Below are positions 125 to 43,649 of a stretch of DNA of 64,000 nucleotides, piece after piece. The notes under the pieces were generated by a model. It had not been told where the DNA came from. It saw nothing but the letters and a program-made list of their open reading frames with translations, and searched no databases. The DNA lies in NCBI GenBank assembly GCA_965140615.1, contig OZ223280.1, positions 1,268,077 to 1,332,076 of the forward strand, given 5' to 3'. How positions within the stretch are numbered: position 1 is the stretch's first letter; each line of letters begins with the position of its first letter. Source of the stretch: Candidatus Cloacimonadales bacterium. GTDB lineage: Bacteria; Cloacimonadota; Cloacimonadia; G963667145. Position numbers and translations under genes: made by a program.

Positions 125-1345
125 TGGAAACTCCACACTAAAAGTATCCACCCCAAGTTAGTGATTTGTAATTGGCTGGTTTATGATAAAATGGAAAAGT
201 TAATTAGAAAAATGGAGAAATAGTCTGTAAAAAAAATGGTCAAATCAGCCGTGAGAGCTGTAATTTGACCATTATGAATAAATATATAGACAATCTGAAA
301 ATTATGAGTAGAAAAGACAAGAAATTTTATCGGAAAAATTTGGTGAAATTTGCAAATGAAACATCTATTTCCGATGCAGCTAGAGAATTTGAAACCACTA
401 GAAAAACTGTGCGAAAGTGGGTCAAAGCCTATAAAGAAAAGGGCGAGGATGGTCTGGTTAATAAATCTCGAAAAGAGCAAAATTTCCCAAATCGCTTAAA
501 ATCTGAGATAATAGAGGAAATAGTAGTTTGTCGCAAAAAGGCAAAAAATCGCTGGGGAGCTAGGCGAATTATTGACCATTTACAGTTAAATTGTTCAGCT
601 TCAACTGTTCATAAAAAGCTCTGTGATGCTGGTTTGGTAAAGAAAAAGAAACGGAAATATCAGCAACGCAAAGATTTAAGTGAAATGCGAGCTAGGGCAA
701 AACCTTTTGAAAAAATCCAAGTGGATATTAAGTATTTGACCGATATGCCAGAATTGTTTGAGGGGATTAAGTACAAAAATTATCCTCGCTATCAAATCAC
801 TGCTAGAGACTACAAAACTGGCATGCAATTTATCGGTTATTGCTATGAGAAAACAGCCGTAAATGCAGGGATTTATATCGATTTTTTGTCTAAAAGATTA
901 AAGAGTTGTGGTGTTGATCTTTCCAAAGTTACTTTTCAGACCGACAATGGCTCAGAGTTTGTGAGTCCGAAGAAAAAGGGTATGAGCTTTTTTCAAAAAA
1001 GTGTGCAAATAAATGGTGCTAATCATTCGCTTATCCCTAAAGGTTCGCCTACTTTTAATTCGGATGTTGAGAGTGCTCATCGGCTGGTAGAGGATGAGTT
1101 TTATCTGATTGATGAATTTGATGATTGCAACGATTTTGTGCGTAAAGCACACAGTTATACGCTGTATTTTAACCATTTAAGAGGAAACAGAGGGCGAAAA
1201 GGTAAGACTCCGAAGCAAATTTTGCGGGAAAATTCTAGGAAGCCCAATTTTAATGTTTTGAACATTAGCCCAATAATCACAGATTATTATTTAAAAGATA
1301 TAGAAAAAATAAATAAGGGTGGATACTTTTACTGTGTACCGCCCA
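125..1345 (+). mobile_element. IS element copy A, about 1221 bp with a single DDE transposase ORF (IS481-like by organisation). Imperfect terminal inverted repeats: left TGGAAACTCCACACTAAAAGTATCCACCCC, right (reverse-complemented) GGGCGGTACACAGTAAAAGTATCCACCC. Flanked by a perfect 15-bp direct repeat.
   Basis: Three near-identical copies in the window share the same ends (…GGAGTTTCCA / GTGTACCGCCCA) and diverge immediately outside them. Copy A is flanked by TGAAGTTGTAATTTA at 110-124 and at 1346-1360. Confidence 0.8.
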
Positions 1346-1356
1346 TGAAGTTGTAA
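265..1356 (+). CDS. DDE transposase with an N-terminal HTH and an rve/integrase core (IS481-like). The ORF has no stop codon inside the IS and terminates in flanking DNA.
   Basis: 363-aa ORF with D (QVDIKY), D (QTDNGSEF) and E (ESAHRLVEDEF) catalytic spacing. The C-termini of the three copies diverge after ...YFYCVPP, exactly at the IS boundary. Confidence 0.8.
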   Translation: MTIMNKYIDNLKIMSRKDKKFYRKNLVKFANETSISDAAREFETTRKTVRKWVKAYKEKGEDGLVNKSRKEQNFPNRLKSEIIEEIVVCRKKAKNRWGARRIIDHLQLNCSASTVHKKLCDAGLVKKKKRKYQQRKDLSEMRARAKPFEKIQVDIKYLTDMPELFEGIKYKNYPRYQITARDYKTGMQFIGYCYEKTAVNAGIYIDFLSKRLKSCGVDLSKVTFQTDNGSEFVSPKKKGMSFFQKSVQINGANHSLIPKGSPTFNSDVESAHRLVEDEFYLIDEFDDCNDFVRKAHSYTLYFNHLRGNRGRKGKTPKQILRENSRKPNFNVLNISPIITDYYLKDIEKINKGGYFYCVPPMKL

Positions 1357-2511: not shown

Positions 2512-4140
2512 ATGAAAAAAAGAATGATGTTATTTTGGTTGATGGCTTTGAGTGCTCTTATGTTTTCTTGTTTTGACTCATCTACCAGTAGTTCAGACAG
2601 CAGTTCAGATTCTGACGATGGTTCTGGGAGTACAGAAAAGATTTCGGTAACTTTGTCGGCTCCAGCGAACGGTGCGAAAGACCAGATGTTGAGTGTGGGA
2701 TTATCTTGGAGTGGTGATGCTACTAGCTATGATTTGTATGTAGGGAGCTCATCTGAAAGTATGGATTTAAAGAAAGCAGATATTATTGGTACGAGCTATA
2801 CTTTGTCTGGGTTGGAGGTTAGCACTAATTACTGTTGGAAGTTGGTGGCTAAGAAAAGTGGATGTGAAGATGTGACTAGCGAAGTCTGGAGTTTCACTAC
2901 TGGGAATTATGGAGTGAGTTTGGCATCTCCAGAAGCAGGTGGAAAAGTATATCAAAAAGAGGTAGAGTTAACTTGGAGTGGTAATGCTGATAGTTATGAT
3001 CTTTATATAGGAACGACTGCTGAAAATATGGTTTCAAAGCAGGGTTGGTCAACCAACAAGAGTTACACATATACGCCAGATTATGGCACTTATTATTGGA
3101 AAATTGTCGGTAAATTTGGGACTAAGATTATAGAAACAGCTGTTAATAGCTTTACGACTGTTGAGCTAACTAGAGCGGAGCTTGATGTTTTAGTTGCTTC
3201 TGGTGTAGATCTTTCTAAAAATGTGGATGTTTCTGGTGTTACCGATATGAGCAATCTTTTTAAGGATAGAGCAACTTTTAATGATGATATTAGTGGTTGG
3301 GATGTGAGTAATGTTACTAATATGTCAGGTATGTTTAATGGAGCAACTGCTTTTAATCAAGAGATTGGTGGTTGGACTGTGAGTAATGTTACTAATATGT
3401 CAGGTATGTTTAATGGAGCAACTGCTTTTAATCAAGAGATTGGTGGTTGGACTGTGAGTAATGTTACTGATATGTCAAATATGTTTAAGCTAGCTTCTTC
3501 TTTTGATAAACCTATAGGAGGCTGGGATGTGAGTAAAGTTACTAATATGTTAGGAATGTTTATGAATGCTTCTTCTTTTGATAAGCCTATAGGAGGCTGG
3601 GATGTGAGTAAAGTTACTAATATGCTAGGTTTATTTAGTGGGGCGACAAACTTTAATCAAGATATTAGCGGATGGATTACTGAAAGTGCTACAACAATGG
3701 ACTGCATGTTTGCAAATACAGAAAATTTTAATGCGGATATTAGTGGTTGGAATGTGAGTAAAGTTGAGCAGTTTGGTTATATGTTCATTAATGCAAAATC
3801 TTTTAATAGAGATCTTAATAATTGGGATGTTTCTAGTGCTAAAGGAATGGGACGTATGTTTAGTAATGCAGTAAAATTTAATTGTGATTTGGATAAATGG
3901 AATGACAAAGTGGGTAATGTTACCTATATGCGTGAGATGTTTTCTGGTGCGACAATTTTTAATGGAAACATCTCTGGTTGGAAAACTGAAAATAATAAAA
4001 GCATGACAGGAATGTTTGAAAATGCTACTAGTTTTAATCAAGACCTTAGTGGCTGGGATGTAAGCAGCTTAGAAGAATATGATGACTATGATAAAGGTAT
4101 TGAAAGCACATGGACATTGGCTAGGCCGAATTTTAATTAA
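2512..4140 (+). CDS. BspA-family / DUF285 repeat surface lipoprotein. It has a signal peptide with a lipobox-like ..LMFSC, a Ser/Asp-rich linker, two ~85-aa duplicated domains and about 11 copies of the ~25-aa GWDVSxVTNMxxMF repeat.
   Basis: Repeats [24 protein letters not shown] and similar. The N-terminal [24 protein letters not shown] is followed by [15 protein letters not shown]. Confidence 0.75.
3304..3453 (+). repeat. Two perfect tandem 75-bp repeats inside the BspA-like gene; a further near-identical 75-bp pair lies at ~3494-3640
   Basis: 3304-3378 and 3379-3453 are identical 75-mers, each encoding 25 aa in frame. Confidence 0.85.
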
Positions 4141-37825: not shown

Positions 37826-37875
37826 AACCGTCCTTTCTATTTTTTTGGTTAATATTTTCTTGGTTCAGTTACAAG

Positions 37876-38969
37876 TCAAGATGTTTTTGTCGTCTTTCTG
37901 GGCGGTACACAGTAAAAGTATCCACCCTTATTTATTTTTTCTATATCTTTTAAATAATAATCTGTGATTATTGGGCTAATGTTCAAAACATTAAAATTGG
38001 GCTTCCTAGAATTTTCCCGCAAAATTTGCTTCGGAGTCTTACCTTTTCGCCCTCTGTTTCCTCTAAAATGATTAAAATACAGCGTATAACTGTGTGCTTT
38101 ACGCACAAAATCGTTGCAATCATCAAATTCATCAATCAGATAAAACTCGTCCTCTACCAGCCGATGAGCACTTTCAACATCAGAATTAAAAGTGGGCGAA
38201 CCTTTGGGGATAAGCGAATGATTAGCACCATTTATTTGCACACTTTTTTGAAAAAAGCTCAAACCCTTTTTCTTGGGACTCACAAACTCTGAGCCATTGT
38301 CGGTTTGAAAAGTAACTTTGGAAAGATCAACACCACAACTCTTTAATCTTTTAGACAAAAAATCGATATAAATCCCTGCATTTACGGCTGTTTTCTCATA
38401 GCAATAACCGATGAATTGCATACCAGTTTTGTAGTCTCTAGCAGTGATTTGATAGCGAGGATAATTTTTGTACTTAATCCCCTCAAACAATTCTGGCATA
38501 TCGGTCAAATACTTAATATCCACTTGGATTTTTTCAAAAGGTTTTGCCCTAGCTCGCATTTCACTTAAATCTTTGCGTTGCTGATATTTCCGTTTCTTTT
38601 TCTTTACCAAACCAGCATCACAGAGCTTTTTATGAACAGTCGAAGCTGAACAATTTAACTGCAAATGGTCAATAATTCGCCTAGCTCCCCAGCGATTTTT
38701 TGCCTTTTTGCGACAAACTACTATTTCCTCTATTATCTCAGATTTTAAGCGATTTGGGAAATTTTGCTTTTTTCGAGATTTATTAACCAGACCATCCTCG
38801 CCCTTTTCTTTATAGGCTTTGACCCACTTTCGCACAGTTTTTCTAGTGGTCTCAAATTCTCTAGCTGCAGCGGAAATAGATGTTTCATTTGCAAATTTCA
38901 CCAAATTTTTCCGATAAAATTTCTTGTCTTTTCTACTCATAATTTTCAAATTGTCTATATATTTTTTCA
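37876..38969 (-). CDS. DDE transposase (copy B); ORF terminates in flanking DNA ~50 bp upstream of parA
   Basis: MKKYIDNLKIMS... nearly identical to copies A and C. The C-terminal tail ...VPPRKTTKTS is flank-encoded. Confidence 0.75.
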
Positions 38970-38975
38970 TAATGG
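37899..38975 (-). mobile_element. IS copy B (older copy), body from the right end to its own start codon. Its left end, 40198-40355, has been displaced by insertion of copy C.
   Basis: Right end GTGTACCGCCCA (reverse complement at 37899-37910). The body is co-linear with copies A and C and is interrupted immediately upstream of its ATG. Confidence 0.7.
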
Positions 38976-40057
38976 TTGGGCGGTACACAGTAAAAGTATC
39001 CACCCTTATTTATTTTTTCTATATCTTTTAAATAATAATCTGTGATTATTGGGCTAATGTTCAAAACATTAAAATTGGGCTTCCTAGAATTTTCCCGCAA
39101 AATTTGCTTCGGAGTCTTACCTTTTCGCCCTCTGTTTCCTCTAAAATGATTAAAATACAGCGTATAACTGTGTGCTTTACGCACAAAATCGTTGCAATCA
39201 TCAAATTCATCAATCAGATAAAACTCGTCCTCTACCAGCCGATGAGCACTTTCAACATCAGAATTAAAAGTGGGCGAACCTTTGGGGATAAGCGAATGAT
39301 TAGCACCATTTATTTGCACACTTTTTTGAAAAAAGCTCAAACCCTTTTTCTTGGGACTCACAAACTCTGAGCCATTGTCGGTCTGAAAAGTAACTTTGGA
39401 AAGATCAACACCACAACTCTTTAATCTTTTAGACAAAAAATCGATATAAATCCCTGCATTTACGGATGTTTTCTCATAGCAATAACCGATAAATTGCATG
39501 CCAGTTTTGTAGTCTCTAGCAGTGATTTGATAGCGAGGATAATTTTTGTACTTAATCCCCTCAAACAACTCTGGCATATCGGTCAAATACTTAATATCCA
39601 CTTGGATTTTTTCAAAAGGTTTTGCCCTAGCTCGCATTTCACTTAAATCTTTGCGTTGCTGATATTTCCGTTTCTTTTTCTTTACCAAACCAGCATCACA
39701 GAGCTTTTTATGAACAGTCGAAGCTGAACAATTTAACTGCAAATGGTCAATAATTCGCCTAGCTCCCCAGCGGTTTTTTGCCTTTTTGCGACAAACTACT
39801 ATTTCCTCTATTATCTCAGATTTCAAGCGATTTGGGAAATTTTGCTCTTTTCGAGATTTATTAACCAGACCATCCTCGCCCTTTTCTTTATAGGCTTTGA
39901 CCCACTTTCGCACAGTTTTTCTAGTGGTCTCAAATTCTCTAGCTGCAGCGGAAATAGATGTTTCATTTGCAAATTTCACCAAATTTTTCCGATAAAATTT
40001 CTTGTCTTTTCTACTCATAATTTTCAAATTGTCTATATATTTGTTCATAATGGTCAA
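38933..40057 (-). CDS. DDE transposase (copy C); ORF reads through the IS end into copy B sequence
   Basis: MTIMNKYIDNL... 374 aa. The C-terminal tail ...VPPNHYEKIYRQFENYE is encoded by copy B DNA. Confidence 0.8.
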   Translation of the reverse strand: MTIMNKYIDNLKIMSRKDKKFYRKNLVKFANETSISAAAREFETTRKTVRKWVKAYKEKGEDGLVNKSRKEQNFPNRLKSEIIEEIVVCRKKAKNRWGARRIIDHLQLNCSASTVHKKLCDAGLVKKKKRKYQQRKDLSEMRARAKPFEKIQVDIKYLTDMPELFEGIKYKNYPRYQITARDYKTGMQFIGYCYEKTSVNAGIYIDFLSKRLKSCGVDLSKVTFQTDNGSEFVSPKKKGLSFFQKSVQINGANHSLIPKGSPTFNSDVESAHRLVEDEFYLIDEFDDCNDFVRKAHSYTLYFNHFRGNRGRKGKTPKQILRENSRKPNFNVLNISPIITDYYLKDIEKINKGGYFYCVPPNHYEKIYRQFENYE

Positions 40058-40197
40058 ATTACAGCTCTCACGGCTGATTTGACCATTTTTTTTACAGACT
40101 ATTTCTCCATTTTTCTAATTAACTTTTCCATTTTATCATAAACCAGCCAATTACAAATCACTAACTTGGGGTGGATACTTTTAGTGTGGAGTTTCCA
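38976..40197 (-). mobile_element. IS copy C (complete, 1222 bp) nested in copy B, flanked by a 15-bp near-perfect direct repeat
   Basis: Same ends as copy A. The flanks are ACCATTATGAAAAAA (38961-38975, reverse complement) and ACCATTATGAATAAA (40198-40212, reverse complement), with one mismatch. Confidence 0.75.
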
Positions 40198-40355
40198 TTT
40201 ATTCATAATGGTCAAATTACAGCTCTCACGGCTGATTTGACCATTTTTTTTACAGACTATTTCTCCATTTTTCTAATTAACTTTTCCATTTTATCATAAA
40301 CCAGCCAATTACAAATCACTAACTTTGGGTGGATACTTTTAGTGTGGAGTTTCCA
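40198..40355 (-). repeat. Displaced left end of IS copy B: left IR, leader and the first 3 codons
   Basis: 158 bp matching the left-end leader of copies A and C (…TGGAAACTCCACAC…GACCATTATGAATAAA). Confidence 0.7.
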
Positions 40356-40478
40356 GAGTTGACAAATTTTTCGATTGACAGACAAACCAGAGGCAAGAGG
40401 AATAGTCAAATGTAGATAAATTGTGGTAGGGTGTGAATATTTTTTTTAAAAACAAGAGGTAAGTAATAAATTTAAAAG

Positions 40479-42905
40479 ATGAACAAACAAAAGAAAATAG
40501 GAATTTTACTGAGTGTTTTTGGTAGTCTGGAGGTGGTGATAAACTCCTTGCTGGCTACCTCTTCTTTTGGGTTTAGGCAAGATTTGGTTTCTGGTCTGGG
40601 GTTGTCTTTTCCCACTTTTTGGGTTGTCTGCTCTTTGTTGCCTGTGGCTGGTCTTTTGGTTGCTTCTGGAAAAGTCTGGACGAAGGAGAAGAGCGAGTTG
40701 TGCTCGCTAGCTGTAGCTCAAGAGCCTGTGATGCCGGAGCATCTTATTAGTAGGGGTAAGGAACTCAAGGTTTTGCAAAAGAGGCTGAAGCGAAAAAATA
40801 TCGTGCTGATAGGTGGAGAAAAAAGTAGCGGAAAAAGTTTGCTTGCGGCAGAGTATTACGACAAGATGAAAGGCTACTACAAAGAGCGTTACTGGATTGG
40901 AGCTCAAAAAAGTATCGAAGAGTCGTTTTTGCGGTTTGGTGAGGAGCAGATTTTAGTGGGTAATGAGCAAAAACTTCCTGAAAAAAAAAGATTAGAGCGG
41001 ATTTTTGATAAGTTTGCAAAGCTTGAAAATTCTTTGCTGGTGGTGGACAATCTGAACGATGCTAGGCAAATGAAGATTTGCCTTTCTTGGTTAGAGAGGT
41101 GCAATAATTTGCAGGTGCTGATAACTACTCGCCTTCCTGAATTTCCAAATGTGGAGTATTTTCAGCTAGAGAGCCCTAAGTTGCGAGCTTGTCTTAAGCT
41201 TTTCAAAAAGCATTGTTCCAAGTGTAAGCCGAAAAAGATGCTGAAAGAGGTCGTTGAAAACTTAGGTAACAATGTTTTTTTAGTGCAGTTACTTGCCAAA
41301 AATTTGCAACACAATAGGAAACGAGACTCTGAATATACCTTATCCAATATGGTGGAAGATTTGCACAACGGTTTGCTGACTCTGGGCAAAAGTAAGAAAG
41401 TTGCGACAAAGAACAACGCTGGAAGTGATAAGCTCCAAGTTCGGCAGTTAGAGGAGCTGGTGATGGCTGTTTATGATGGCATGGATTTGGCAGAGCAAGA
41501 AAAGACATTACTTTCAGTTTTTGTTGTCTTGCCTAGCGAAAATATCGCGTGGCAATTTTTGGAAAGAAGTTACGGTGATGAGGGAGTGGAGAAGCATCTT
41601 ATGAGTTTGACAAAAAAAGGGCTTCTCAATTGGGACGAAAAAAGAAAGATTGTGTCAGTCTGCTCGCTAGTGGCAGAGGCAGTCGCTCATTTGCATAGAG
41701 ATAGGACTTTCGACGATTGCAAACCGATGTTGGAGCAGATTAGCCAGCAACTTTTTGGTAAAGAGATACTATCGGCTAAAAAGGCGAGATATAGCCAGCT
41801 TTTGCTTAGGTACACTTCGAGCGTAATGAAAGAGTTAGATGGACAAGGCAAAGAGATTGCTGTTTTGCATGGAGCTTTGGGGAACTATTACAAAAATGTG
41901 GGCGATTTGTCGTCTTCTTTACCTTCATACGGTAAAGCTTGTTTGATTTTTGAAGATTTGTGCAAGGGAAGTACCTCTAACCAAGACCTCAAGTACAATC
42001 TGGCAGTCTCTTATTATAAATTGGGAGCGATACACAAAGAATTGGAAAATGCGGTTAAAGCTCTGAAGTGTTTTGAGCTTAACACCAAACTCAACAAAGA
42101 GTTGTACGACGCTTATCCGCAAAATAGTTCTGTGCAAAGCAATTTGGCTTACTCTTTTGATTTACTGGGATTGATGCACAAGGAGTTGGATAATATGCAA
42201 AAGGCTCAAGTTTGCTACGGGAATTGTTTGAAATTGGTCGAGGAACTTTGTAGAACATTACCGCAGGAAAGTTCTTTCAAGAAGAGGTTGATAAAATCGT
42301 ATGAAAATCTGGGTGATATTCACAAAACAAGAAAAAATTTTAATCAAGCTTTGGAATGTTTTGAAAAGGGGACGAGGCAGGCTTTAAAGGTTTGTGAAGA
42401 GTTTGCAAAAGATGTCTCTGCCAAAAAAGATTTGGTGCAGTTATTTTCCAAGTTGGGTTTGTTGCAGATGAGCTTAAATCGGGTTGATCTGGCAGTTAGG
42501 TGCTTTAGCAGAGAGAACGCGTTGTATCGGCAGATGCATAAAAAAAACCCCAAAGAGCTTTTTTGGAAGCAAGGCTTAGCTGTTTCTTATGAGAAGTTGG
42601 GCACCATGCAGTCCAAATTGGGCGAACTGGACAAGGCACAAAAGAGCTTCGAGCAAGAAGTGTCTTTGTTTACCCAGCTTTGTAAATCTTTCCCACAAGA
42701 TGCGAACCTCGAAAACGGACTTGCTGTTTCTTATGCCAAATTTGCGACATTTTATCGAGCAAAACGCAAAGACACTCGACAAGCGCGGCACTATTTCGGC
42801 AAAGCTAAGTCGTTGTGGGGCAATCTGGTGGGACAATTTCCACAGAATCAGTTGTTTAGCAAGTTCTTGAGCAATGTGGAGAGGGATTTGCACAGGCTTA
42901 GGTAG
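40479..42905 (+). CDS. Membrane-anchored STAND NTPase: two N-terminal TM helices, an NB-ARC-type P-loop NTPase domain and C-terminal TPR repeats
   Basis: TM helices IGILLSVFGSLEVVINSLLATS and LSFPTFWVVCSLLPVAGLLVASG. Walker A VLIGGEKSSGKS. Walker B SLLVVDNLND. RNBS-B-like LQVLITTR. About 10 TPR-like units (..LAVSYEKLGTMQSKLGELDKAQKSFEQ..). Confidence 0.65.
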   Translation: MNKQKKIGILLSVFGSLEVVINSLLATSSFGFRQDLVSGLGLSFPTFWVVCSLLPVAGLLVASGKVWTKEKSELCSLAVAQEPVMPEHLISRGKELKVLQKRLKRKNIVLIGGEKSSGKSLLAAEYYDKMKGYYKERYWIGAQKSIEESFLRFGEEQILVGNEQKLPEKKRLERIFDKFAKLENSLLVVDNLNDARQMKICLSWLERCNNLQVLITTRLPEFPNVEYFQLESPKLRACLKLFKKHCSKCKPKKMLKEVVENLGNNVFLVQLLAKNLQHNRKRDSEYTLSNMVEDLHNGLLTLGKSKKVATKNNAGSDKLQVRQLEELVMAVYDGMDLAEQEKTLLSVFVVLPSENIAWQFLERSYGDEGVEKHLMSLTKKGLLNWDEKRKIVSVCSLVAEAVAHLHRDRTFDDCKPMLEQISQQLFGKEILSAKKARYSQLLLRYTSSVMKELDGQGKEIAVLHGALGNYYKNVGDLSSSLPSYGKACLIFEDLCKGSTSNQDLKYNLAVSYYKLGAIHKELENAVKALKCFELNTKLNKELYDAYPQNSSVQSNLAYSFDLLGLMHKELDNMQKAQVCYGNCLKLVEELCRTLPQESSFKKRLIKSYENLGDIHKTRKNFNQALECFEKGTRQALKVCEEFAKDVSAKKDLVQLFSKLGLLQMSLNRVDLAVRCFSRENALYRQMHKKNPKELFWKQGLAVSYEKLGTMQSKLGELDKAQKSFEQEVSLFTQLCKSFPQDANLENGLAVSYAKFATFYRAKRKDTRQARHYFGKAKSLWGNLVGQFPQNQLFSKFLSNVERDLHRLR

Positions 42906-42949
42906 CGGAGCTTACGGTTAATAGTTGATGAGGAGAAAATCCCACTGTC

Positions 42950-43175
42950 TCTTAATCTTGAACACCACCAGAGTTTTGTCATCAACCGTTTTCACTTTGG
43001 CATACCACTTGTTTTGTGTTCTCACTTGCTCTGATTGTTGCACACCACCTGCCTTGTGCTACCACCTGCCCTCATTTCTACTCACCACCAGTCTTGTGCC
43101 ACCACTTCATACTATTCTTGCTCACTATCAGTTTTGCCTTCTCCACCTAGCTTCATTCTTTTGAAAGCAGGAATT
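42950..43175 (+). repeat. Pyrimidine-rich tract (about 12% G on the plus strand) made of roughly 9 degenerate ~20-22-bp periodic units
   Basis: Recurrent CACCACCWG..YTTGTGYY-like units. No convincing ORF. Complement strand carries repeated AGGTGG/GGTGGTG. Confidence 0.5.
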
Positions 43176-43439
43176 TATCGTCCCAGACGATGCTTTCAAG
43201 GGTCAGGAAAGGGCGGCGTCTTACTTTTCCCCTCAACCATTATTCCTCAGTAACTTTTAACTGGGGGCGTTAGCCCACCTGTAGGCGACTCACCCCAAAA
43301 AGCAAAGCTCACAACACCAATATTTGCAAGATGATGAGTTTCTGCTTACCTTGCAAATAATTTCCTTGACCGATAAACCCCAGCAGTTCCTTTGGTCTGT
43401 AGTAAGAAAAATACAGCAAAAAGTGGGGTGATGTTACTT

Positions 43440-43649
43440 ATGCCGATGGTCGTTACTAAAAATAAAGAGCCTTTTGAGGTGTTGCTTCGTAAGTTTAAGA
43501 AGAAGTGCGAGATGGCGGGTGTGCTTTCTGATATTAAGAAAAACCAACGCTACGAAAAGCCTTCTGTTAAAAAACGCCGAGAAGTAAACGCGGTAAAAAG
43601 AAAGCTTTTTAACAAGCAACGCAAGTTGACTCGATTGAGAGGGTATTAG
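43440..43649 (+). CDS. rpsU: 30S ribosomal protein bS21
   Basis: MPMVVTKNKEPFEVLLRKFKKKCEMAGVLSDIKKNQRYEKPS... The longer ORF from 43392 is likely an extension; the true start may be a few codons upstream. Confidence 0.8.
   Translation: MPMVVTKNKEPFEVLLRKFKKKCEMAGVLSDIKKNQRYEKPSVKKRREVNAVKRKLFNKQRKLTRLRGY

Follow-up and report, generated by a model that had tools for sequence, protein, structure and literature searches.

The 64,000-nucleotide stretch analyzed here (the window) comes from a Candidatus Cloacimonadales bacterium (GCA_965140615.1, contig OZ223280.1, positions 1,268,077 to 1,332,076), and it carries a gene at 40479..42905 on the forward strand whose 808-amino acid product joins two N-terminal transmembrane (TM) helices to an NB-ARC-clade NTPase and a tetratricopeptide repeat (TPR) array. 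We are highly confident of this overall architecture. It is the layout of signal transduction ATPases with numerous domains (STAND), and bacterial NLR-like STAND proteins are established antiviral sensors; most of those characterized kill by means of enzymatic effectors. The window protein is a compact single-chain example whose only candidate output is a membrane hairpin. By analogy with known receptors of this type, we put at about an even chance the reading that it is an NLR-like receptor with a function in defense or cell death.

The coding sequence is a single long open reading frame (ORF) with an ATG start, and complete orthologs of it are present in L001, L002, and L093. A protein identical to its product is on record (P0001), encoded on a 1,555,846-bp contig. 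The preliminary description had started the feature at 40356; upstream boxes do lie from that position on, but coding begins only at 40479. It had also proposed the tripartite order of TM module, nucleotide-binding oligomerization domain (NOD), and TPR sensor typical of STAND/NLR proteins, and this order held in hidden Markov model (HMM) searches, in profile searches against the PDB, in AlphaFold2 (AF2) models, and in fold searches. The full-length AF2 model (mean predicted local distance difference test, pLDDT, 79.4) shows a beta-alpha nucleotide-binding domain (NBD), a helical domain, a winged helix with a beta-hairpin at residues 383-394, and a TPR superhelix. Foldseek comparison of the whole chain with the PDB gave 6mfv_A as the best match (1.5e-13), followed by TPR domains of LGN/Pins; CED-4 was also matched (1.7e-7).

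The NTPase is recognizable from its motifs as well as from its fold. Its NBD (residues 89-232, 40743..41174, forward strand), delimited by motifs, family alignment, and profile matches, contains Walker A GGEKSSGKS (residues 112-120, 40812-40838), Walker B LLVVDNLND (residues 186-194, 41034-41060), and an RNBS-B-like sensor-1 segment LITTR (residues 214-218, 41118-41132). Helical domain 1 (HD1, residues 233-305) and the winged-helix domain (WHD, residues 323-405) follow at 41175..41693 on the same strand, as located by AF2, Foldseek, and the family alignment, with a GLPL-like segment LGNNVFLVQLLA at residues 262-273 (41262-41297). The four motifs, all on the forward strand, are the ones named at first reading. 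The protein has both the Walker A pattern GxxxxGK[ST] and the Walker B pattern hhhhD[DN], and it has the NBD-HD1-WHD fold (AF2, Foldseek, and profile matches) with the sensor-1 arginine (R218). It lacks the histidine of the MHD motif, which is replaced by Cys395 (V-C-S); all Cloacimonadota orthologs compared have Cys here and most relatives have Ser, P0009 being the only one with His. Residues G113, K119, S120, D190, and N191 are invariant in the orthologs, as are the patterns GxxxxGKS, hhhhDN, and TTR. D190, N191, T216, and R218 are invariant throughout the family alignment, where Walker B reads DN rather than DD in 9/9 aligned members. The P-loop context departs from the family pattern GxGGxGKT in the Cloacimonadota clade only.

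Assignment of this NTPase to the NB-ARC type, as first suggested, is supported by relatives, profile, and fold, but not by a match of the protein's own to the Pfam NB-ARC model. PF00931 (gathering threshold 23.5 bits) matched neither the window protein nor P0002 even at E<=10, and the window NTPase had only weak Pfam matches to AAA_16, ATPase_2, and nSTAND3. Eight relatives (P0004-7, P0013, P0014, P0016, and P0021) pass the threshold with 25.7-56.3 bits, and four of them (P0013, P0014, P0016, and P0021) match window residues 1-440 at 4.4e-47 to 1.8e-64. Since relatives that pass PF00931 match the window protein, and profile and fold agree, its NOD is a member of the NB-ARC (AP-ATPase) clade on the strength of fold and transitive homology, if an unusually diverged one. 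The NCBIfam model FxSxx_TPR (NF040586) matched residues 89-372 with 56.8 bits (E 1.5e-15), short of its equivalog cut-off of 300 bits; this shows a shared NOD type and not membership among the TPR proteins of FxSxx-COOH systems. Pfam and NCBIfam scans detected no DNA-binding domain (LuxR-type helix-turn-helix or BTAD/OmpR) on the NOD.

Solved structures place the NOD in the same company. A profile (A1) made from the window protein and eight homologs was searched against PDB sequences, and through the NOD it matched the Pyrococcus STAND-TPR protein 6mfv (PH0952; 2.5e-14) and several plant NLRs, including the NRG1-like 8yl6 (3.4e-10), Roq1 (1.1e-9), and NRC4 (1.3e-9), and also NRC1, MLA13, and ZAR1. 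CED-4 (3.1e-5) and AfsR (5.5e-5) were matched as well, the latter through its NOD only.

The TPR sensor (41847..42902, forward strand) was delimited by AF2 and Pfam. About 10 repeats had been expected; the AF2 model and repeat alignment instead give seven helix-pair repeats of 48 residues, starting at residues 457, 502, 550, 598, 646, 694, and 742, and a capping helix at residues 791-807. Model confidence is high here (pLDDT mostly 87-97), Pfam models TPR_1 (1.5e-16) and TPR_12 (4.3e-12) match, and both the profile search against the PDB and Foldseek indicate a fold like that of LGN/Pins.

The N-terminal 2-TM module occupies residues 1-70 (40479..40688, forward strand), as defined by hydropathy, AF2, an HMM built from stand-alone proteins only, and alignments. 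It opens with the basic sequence MNKQKK, and its two helices, TM1 (residues 7-27, 40497-40559) and TM2 (residues 44-65, 40608-40673), both on the forward strand, are joined by a connecting helix (residues 30-40) bearing a GLS[FY]xxFW motif. The Kyte-Doolittle average over 19 residues reaches its maximum of 1.98 twice, at residues 7-25 and 44-62, and stays at or below 1.29 in the rest of the protein. AF2 predicts helices at residues 3-27, 30-40 (short), and 44-63/80, in agreement with the hydropathy peaks; the failure of the TM prediction that had been raised as grounds for rejecting the candidate was not seen. AF2 confidence is below 50 for residues 1-81 in the full-length model and rises to 74-78 for residues 11-60 when the module is modeled with an alignment of the 2-TM family. 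Because the N-terminus is basic and a K/E-rich stretch follows TM2, the positive-inside rule would make the module an inner-membrane hairpin with both ends inside (N-in/C-in) and the NTPase cytoplasmic.

The HMM built from stand-alone proteins scores 22.0 bits on the N-terminus of the window protein, 16.7 on that of L001, and 14.1 on that of L002, and none of 3000 shuffles per sequence that preserve the layout of hydrophobic blocks reached the real score (maxima 12.2, 10.2, and 13.1 bits, respectively). Against Pfam, the module from the window protein, from L001, and from the stand-alone sequences gave nothing above cut-off and only weak matches of a hydrophobic type. No Pfam HMM for SLATT or for other catalogued 2-TM pore effectors matched it, and the PDB held no meaningful sequence or fold match among its solved structures. 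A linker of about 25 residues joins the hairpin to the NTPase. Just before the NBD lies the family motif P-x-x-P-x-x-[FL]-x-x-R (PVMPEHLISRG in the window protein, 40725..40757, forward strand), in which P83, P86, and R92 are invariant across the fused members; the family consensus at this site is LTxPPFxPEVFxGR.

The same module is found in other proteins, both fused and separate. It is fused to a NOD in L007 (a metagenome-assembled genome, MAG, of Bacteroidales), P0016, and P0021. From its basic N-terminus the module runs through TM1, a G[LI]S[YF]xxxW motif, and TM2 to W-K. A module-only profile searched against 5.8 billion sequences recovered eight stand-alone proteins of 83-128 amino acids (E 5e-22 to 3e-17), among them P0164, which the Joint Genome Institute (JGI) annotates as "uncharacterized membrane protein." In each of four independent contig families (L081-L085, L086, L087-L089, and L090-L092), 1-12 nucleotides separate the end of the stand-alone gene from a larger gene. 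This downstream gene has NB-ARC and TPR matches in L081/L082, L086, and L087; in L090-L092, where the contig ends within it, the only link is the shared N-terminal motif. Split pairs with 2-TM proteins of about 109-128 amino acids are located at L081 8001-10482, L086 154-2371, L087 6001-8214, and L090 6001-7118.

In all four pairs, the 2-TM protein ends in 13-17 residues that are matched at the start of the protein encoded downstream. The C-terminal and N-terminal copies are GDKTIYIEKNNGNITV and GNKSIYIEENTGNIQIV in L081, GKGSVYVEKSEGPINM and GDNSVYVEEQHGDINT in L086, GKKSVYVEKHEGPINM and GHNSLYVEKQFGDINP in L087, and HSGTGDNVGRDKI and HSGQGDNVGRDKI in L090. The motifs fall into two types, ...S[IV]Y[IV]E..xGxI.. 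and HSGxGDNVGRDKI, and the two partners of a pair always agree; the L090 pair has a different motif from the other pairs. The pairs are probably from Bacteroidota, since L007 is a Bacteroidales MAG and a Por_Secre_tail neighbor was found. A BLASTP comparison with window residues 76-440 ranks highest, outside Cloacimonadota, the L087 split-pair receptor (240 bits), the fused protein of L007 (239 bits), and P0013 (233 bits), followed by the split-pair receptors of L086 (231 bits) and L081 (214 bits). P0013 carries the shared motif at its own N-terminus, so that the best matches are all either associated with a 2-TM module or motif-bearing.

Gene pairs with matched terminal motifs define NLR-associated amyloid signaling, and the split pairs resemble them in layout; amyloid formation by the present motifs would be a candidate property only. 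Pairs of Bell effectors with NB-ARC/TPR proteins, coupled by BASS motifs, have been described (10.1101/2020.01.06.895854), in a survey that makes no mention of Bacteroidota. For Bab/Agp, abortive-infection amyloid signaling has been demonstrated experimentally, with the small effector moving to the cell periphery and membranes being altered (10.1101/2024.11.07.622273). The parallel is limited to the relatives because the window protein lacks a paired motif. The window protein is thus the fused version of a receptor/effector system of which a split version exists as well, and this double occurrence is the strongest argument available that the hairpin is a functional output and not a passive anchor. 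The original suggestion that the TM module is the N-terminal effector has gained support in two ways: homologous NOD-TPR proteins have TIR, CHAT, EAD11, NNH5, or LmuA-like modules in that place, and the closest outgroups have a separate 2-TM gene upstream.

The wider family has a variable N-terminal slot. An exhaustive search with window residues 1-440 against 1.84 billion cluster representatives returned 997 matches at E<=1e-3 and 135 at E<=1e-30, and none except the protein itself begins before query residue 62. The NOD is located anywhere from residue 2 to about residue 550 of these targets, and Walker A of the relatives with genome loci lies between residues 19 and 365. N-terminal modules of relatives about 30% identical to the window protein include EAD11 (5e-24), NNH5 (7.1e-28), TIR_2 (6.4e-13), CHAT (8.8e-12), an LmuA-like nuclease (8.6e-11), and a PDC-S60-like domain (5.3e-15). 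Such a repertoire is characteristic of NTP-dependent conflict systems (Kaur et al., PMC7159879, PMC8195603), and bacterial NLR-like proteins share it (10.1101/2020.01.06.895854). In addition, residues 1-240 of P0007 and P0008 from Methylovulum psychrotolerans form an N-terminal domain beginning MPYPGGGADKMGNYYEALW with no Pfam match at E<=0.01, which may be another uncatalogued effector module.

Distribution of the gene is narrow. Its host has a Cloacimonadota genome of about 1.55 Mb, and a scan of the genome collection with a five-sequence alignment found two Cloacimonadota MAG chromosomes (1.56 and 1.58 Mb) with full-length orthologs, 53% and 60% identical. The orthologs of L001, L002, and L093 are 60%, 53%, and 54% identical, respectively, the match to L093 including the 2-TM part. 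About 230 further relatives, at about 30% identity, match from query residue 78-83 or thereabouts and so without the TM part; most are from Saprospiraceae, Chitinophagales, other Bacteroidota, Chlorobi, methanotrophs, and Nitrosomonas. Among the 1.84 billion representatives, the best match beyond the protein's own 50% cluster is 35% identical, and nothing falls between 35% and 50%. Two scans of JGI metagenome contigs found no further orthologs, and there are none in all other Cloacimonadota sampled.

Gene order indicates how the gene has been inherited. In L001 and L002 the order is ParB, ParA, xanthine/uracil permease, tRNA-Val(GAC), NB-ARC/TPR gene, rpsU, CvpA, response regulator, histidine kinase, sigma factor, hisD, and CstA. 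L093 keeps this order around the NB-ARC/TPR gene and is without the regulator, kinase, and sigma genes. The more distant L094 (CvpA 55% identical) has the frame of permease and tRNA-Val on one side and rpsU and CvpA on the other without the NB-ARC/TPR gene. Because its tRNA-Val-to-rpsU slot holds a gene for a 351-amino acid lipoprotein with an FGE-sulfatase domain (lipobox LLGVFGC; L094 3406-4461), this slot carries different cargo in different lineages. The NB-ARC/TPR gene is among the most diverged of the syntenic block, with 60% and 53% identity to L001 and L002 compared with 66-99% and 53-96% for its neighbors; in the comparison with L002 it is equaled by the sigma-factor gene and no other. 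Universally conserved, syntenic housekeeping orthologs, which the preliminary description had named as evidence against a defense protein, were not seen: orthologs are confined to four close genomes, and the slot differs in L094. The gene is a clade-restricted accessory gene beside a tRNA gene, in a variable slot that also collects insertion sequence (IS) elements. It is inherited vertically within a small species group, and is neither a universal housekeeping gene nor IS cargo.

If the protein is an NLR-like receptor, its action can be pictured by analogy with Apaf-1/CED-4, plant resistosomes, Avs, and bNACHT proteins. At rest, the TPR arm would hold the ADP-bound NOD closed. A cytoplasmic protein ligand, belonging either to an invader (a phage or another) or to the host and then perturbed by an invader, would bind the TPR groove and so permit nucleotide exchange and oligomerization of the NOD. 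The oligomers would then cluster the 2-TM hairpins, the membrane may be permeabilized or depolarized, and the cell would be arrested or killed, following the logic of abortive infection. A broader proposal, which we advance tentatively and hold to be on the doubtful side of even, is that the hairpin represents an undescribed family of membrane "executioners" run by NB-ARC/TPR receptors, through fusion in the window protein, L007, P0016, and P0021, and through prion-like templating by the matched terminal motifs in the split pairs of probable Bacteroidota.

Several observations weigh against a receptor for defense or cell death. The gene is single-copy and stands in the same position in four species, in a streamlined 1.55-Mb genome, among housekeeping genes and without defense neighbors or a defense-island context. 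The Avs/bNACHT HMMs of PADLOC-DB v2.0 (families to 2023) match neither the window protein nor nine relatives, and the only PADLOC match of the window protein is to PDC-S01 (E 0.0017, residues 84-202). Among 131 genes in the neighborhood of 33 family members, no partner recurred and only a handful of genes were of defense type, and the family NOD had 0 matches in the phage collection and 1 in the plasmid collection. As a fusion without a paired motif, the window protein does not itself have the shared-motif gene pair by which amyloid signaling is recognized. NTPase competence may be less than assured, since the window protein and P0002 fail the NB-ARC HMM and the P-loop departs from GxGGxGKT. 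The TM helices themselves are a prediction grounded on hydropathy and on AF2 models of moderate confidence rather than on a dedicated topology predictor.

Evolution of the TPR arm also weighs on that side. Rapidly diversifying NLRs have hyper-similar repeats; the present repeats are 18% identical to each other (mean pairwise) and are old and dissimilar. An arms-race sensor is normally expected to be less conserved, not more, than the rest of its protein, yet the TPR array is the best-conserved part among orthologs (72% and 61%, compared with 34-56% for the TM, NBD, HD1, and WHD parts). Conservation of the array, dissimilar repeats, and a stable single copy fit recognition of a conserved target, and a lineage-specific cellular role fits them equally well. 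Avs sensors do recognize conserved phage folds (PMC13581612).

Such a cellular role is the basis of a different explanation, in which the protein is a membrane-tethered signaling or scaffolding ATPase, the hairpin serves only to anchor it, and a conserved host protein is brought to the membrane by the TPR arm in a nucleotide-dependent manner; in its logic this would be akin to STAND regulators of the MalT/AfsR type or TPR scaffolds of the LGN/Pins type. The LGN/Pins-like fold of the most conserved region suits it, as do the missing defense island, the stable position in four species near parAB, bactofilin, M23 peptidase, and CvpA genes, and the persistence of an intact gene in a reduced genome, which implies selection. 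However, apart from the 2-TM module there is no output domain, whether DNA-binding, enzymatic, or other, and homologous NODs bear TIR, CHAT, EAD11, or LmuA-like modules. A separate 2-TM protein coupled by a terminal motif is hard to square with a passive anchor, and the gene is absent from the L094 slot and from all other Cloacimonadota sampled, besides being among the fastest-evolving of its block. We consider a tethered ATPase unlikely, although not to the point of neglect. The peculiarities of the NTPase (a divergent P-loop, DN in Walker B, and Cys for the MHD histidine) could alternatively mark what remains of an acquired NLR-like gene that is degenerating or has shifted in function; its NTPase would no longer cycle normally, and the protein would be retained by chance or in a lesser capacity. 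Only the Cloacimonadota clade fails the NB-ARC HMM, conservation is lowest in the NOD and TM parts, GC content at third codon positions (GC3) is 0.47 and thus below that of most neighbors (0.52-0.64), and the slot is prone to IS insertion, all of which would agree with decay. Against decay, the 2.4-kb ORF is open in four genomes that are 40-47% apart at the protein level, with GxxxxGKS, hhhhDN, and TTR unchanged, and the Walker B DN and the non-His MHD position hold across most of the aligned family, beyond this clade. A remnant is improbable in our estimation.

The N-terminus could also be read as a helical domain like Bell or HeLo, soluble until activation and only then entering the membrane. 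Bab/Bell effectors do have an N-terminal hydrophobic helix in a small helical domain (10.1101/2024.11.07.622273), the stand-alone relatives are, at about 109 amino acids, of similar size to Bab, and the full-length model has confidence below 50 over residues 1-81. Two segments of about 20 residues at a hydropathy of 1.98, a basic N-terminus, and a W-K motif typical of interfacial anchoring argue for a resident membrane hairpin instead, as does the JGI annotation of P0164 as a membrane protein, and no solved structure matched the module in sequence or fold. We see little chance of a module that is soluble at first.

A receptor with a membrane output would be of interest beyond this genome. The fused and split relatives are a natural "Rosetta stone" that links the hairpin to the receptor, and the split form to the motif layout of amyloid signaling. 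They make it possible to test whether a minimal 2-TM module, once clustered, suffices to permeabilize a bacterial membrane, whether amyloid-type signaling operates in a lineage of Bacteroidota, and what ligand the slowly evolving TPR sensor binds. If the hairpin does act as an executioner, NLR-type regulated cell death, including amyloid signaling, would reach anaerobic, small-genome (presumably unicellular) bacteria, and the unusually conserved TPR arm would point to a conserved trigger. If a housekeeping role is correct, the protein would be a rare case of an NLR-type switch recruited for normal physiology in a reduced genome.

Upstream of the gene, TTGACA is present at 40360-40365 and at 40376-40381, as read directly from the sequence. 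Of these boxes, reported earlier as a tandem, both exist, but the first is not conserved in the orthologous upstream regions. The second (40376..40381, forward strand), about 100 nucleotides before the start codon, is -35-like and lies within ATTGACA, which is invariant in the window, L001, and L002; it may function as part of a promoter, and a consensus scan found no -10 element to match it.

IS DNA adjoins this region, as the preliminary description stated, although the array it mentioned is one IS copy inserted in another. This nested pair (37899..40354, reverse strand), identified by repeats and Pfam, encodes a transposase with helix-turn-helix and rve_3 domains. Copy B (38977-40196, 1220 bp) interrupts copy A (37899-38976 and 40197-40354) near its transposase start and displaces a 158-bp end (40197-40354). 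The nesting is recent, because reconstructed copy A and copy B are identical at 1210/1236 positions. The permease and tRNA-Val(GAC) genes lie between parA and the NB-ARC/TPR gene in all four relatives; the window has neither of them there, and the IS pair stands at their site (window 37826-40478 compared with L001 8259-9771, L093 4285-5826, and L094 1107-2620). In L002 this intergenic region holds a different element, of IS3 type. IS elements were considered as carriers of the gene and rejected, as orthologs occupy the corresponding position where this IS is missing. Every 1-kb bin of 1-64000 has positive GC skew (up to 0.39), whatever the gene orientation, except the IS pair bins (38001-40000; -0.18 and -0.19). 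With parAB also present, the pattern is consistent with one replichore arm under strong strand bias, the IS copies being either recent arrivals or oppositely oriented. Two forward-strand ORFs elsewhere in the window (265-1356 and 2512-4140) have GC3 of 0.33 and 0.28, the rest of the window being mostly at 0.44-0.64 and the IS transposase at 0.34; these ORFs may be foreign DNA.

Downstream of the gene is a C/T-rich intergenic tract (42950-43130, forward strand) with the motif YACCACYWGYYTTGTG at 43003, 43043, and 43083, that is, 40 nucleotides apart (three matches compared with 0.42 expected). The tract is about 85% identical to L001 12500-12700 and is absent from L002 and L093; as it is common to L001 only, it was rejected as a partner of the gene. 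Rfam gave no RNA family for it on 42850-43450 at E<=1, Tandem Repeats Finder reported no tandem array, and Rfam searches of the window, L001, and L002 at gathering thresholds found tRNAs only. About 1.2-1.5 kb separate the NB-ARC/TPR gene from rpsU in L001 (12434-13947) and L002 (12431-13640), compared with 0.5 kb in the window. In L001 this gap holds several copies of a palindrome ttcccgcgaaagcgggaatc like repetitive extragenic palindromic elements. The final 80 nucleotides or so upstream of rpsU, a TTGACC box among them, hardly vary between the window, L001, and L002.

Among known systems, STAND transcription regulators (MalT, AfsR/SARP, and GutR) have a DNA-binding domain on the NOD, and the window protein differs from them in that none was found. 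Closer are the NB-ARC/TPR NLR-like proteins of the AP-ATPase clade (Kaur et al., 2020, PMC7159879; Kaur et al., 2021, PMC8195603; Dyrka et al., 2020), with which it shares the NBD-HD1-WHD core followed by TPRs and a variable N-terminal slot for effectors or adaptors (TIR, CHAT, EAD, and NNH); relatives of its own family are concentrated in Saprospiraceae, Chitinophagales, Chlorobi, and methanotrophs. The catalogued proteins of this kind belong to conflict systems of multicellular bacteria, whereas the window protein is from a small-genome member of Cloacimonadota, is single-copy and vertically stable, and has a NOD beyond the Pfam cut-off and a 2-TM hairpin without a Pfam family. Effector/NLR amyloid pairs (Bell-BASS, Bab/Agp with BASS11, and fungal HET-S/NWD2) resemble the closest outgroups, which have a gene for a small membrane-targeting protein upstream and a matched motif. 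They differ in that the effector here is a 2-TM hairpin and not a Bell or HeLo domain, and the window protein is fused and motif-free.

Avs and bNACHT proteins (PMC13581612; 10.1101/2022.07.19.500537) are likewise single-polypeptide STAND proteins with TPR-like sensors, and the same logic of ligand-induced oligomerization would be expected; TM segments or modules are listed among bNACHT and Avs-related architectures (10.1101/2022.07.19.500537; PMC13581612). The window protein is unlike them in having no PADLOC HMM match and a NOD of the NB-ARC rather than the NACHT clade. Plant CC-NLR resistosomes (ZAR1 and NRC4) and 6mfv have an NB-ARC-type NOD like that of the window protein, by both profile and fold; 6mfv is without a membrane module. 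Likeness to the plant proteins may extend to concept, with NOD oligomers assembling N-terminal helices into a membrane-perturbing structure, although the window sensor is TPR and not leucine-rich repeat, its N-terminal helices are predicted to be already membrane-resident, and it has Cys for the MHD histidine. Bacterial STAND/NLR-like proteins with TPR sensors, TM architectures, and membrane effectors coupled by amyloid motifs were thus already known. What the present analysis adds to them is an uncatalogued 2-TM module, its occurrence in both fused and split form with matched terminal motifs, apparently in Bacteroidota, and a diverged, vertically retained copy in small-genome Cloacimonadota.

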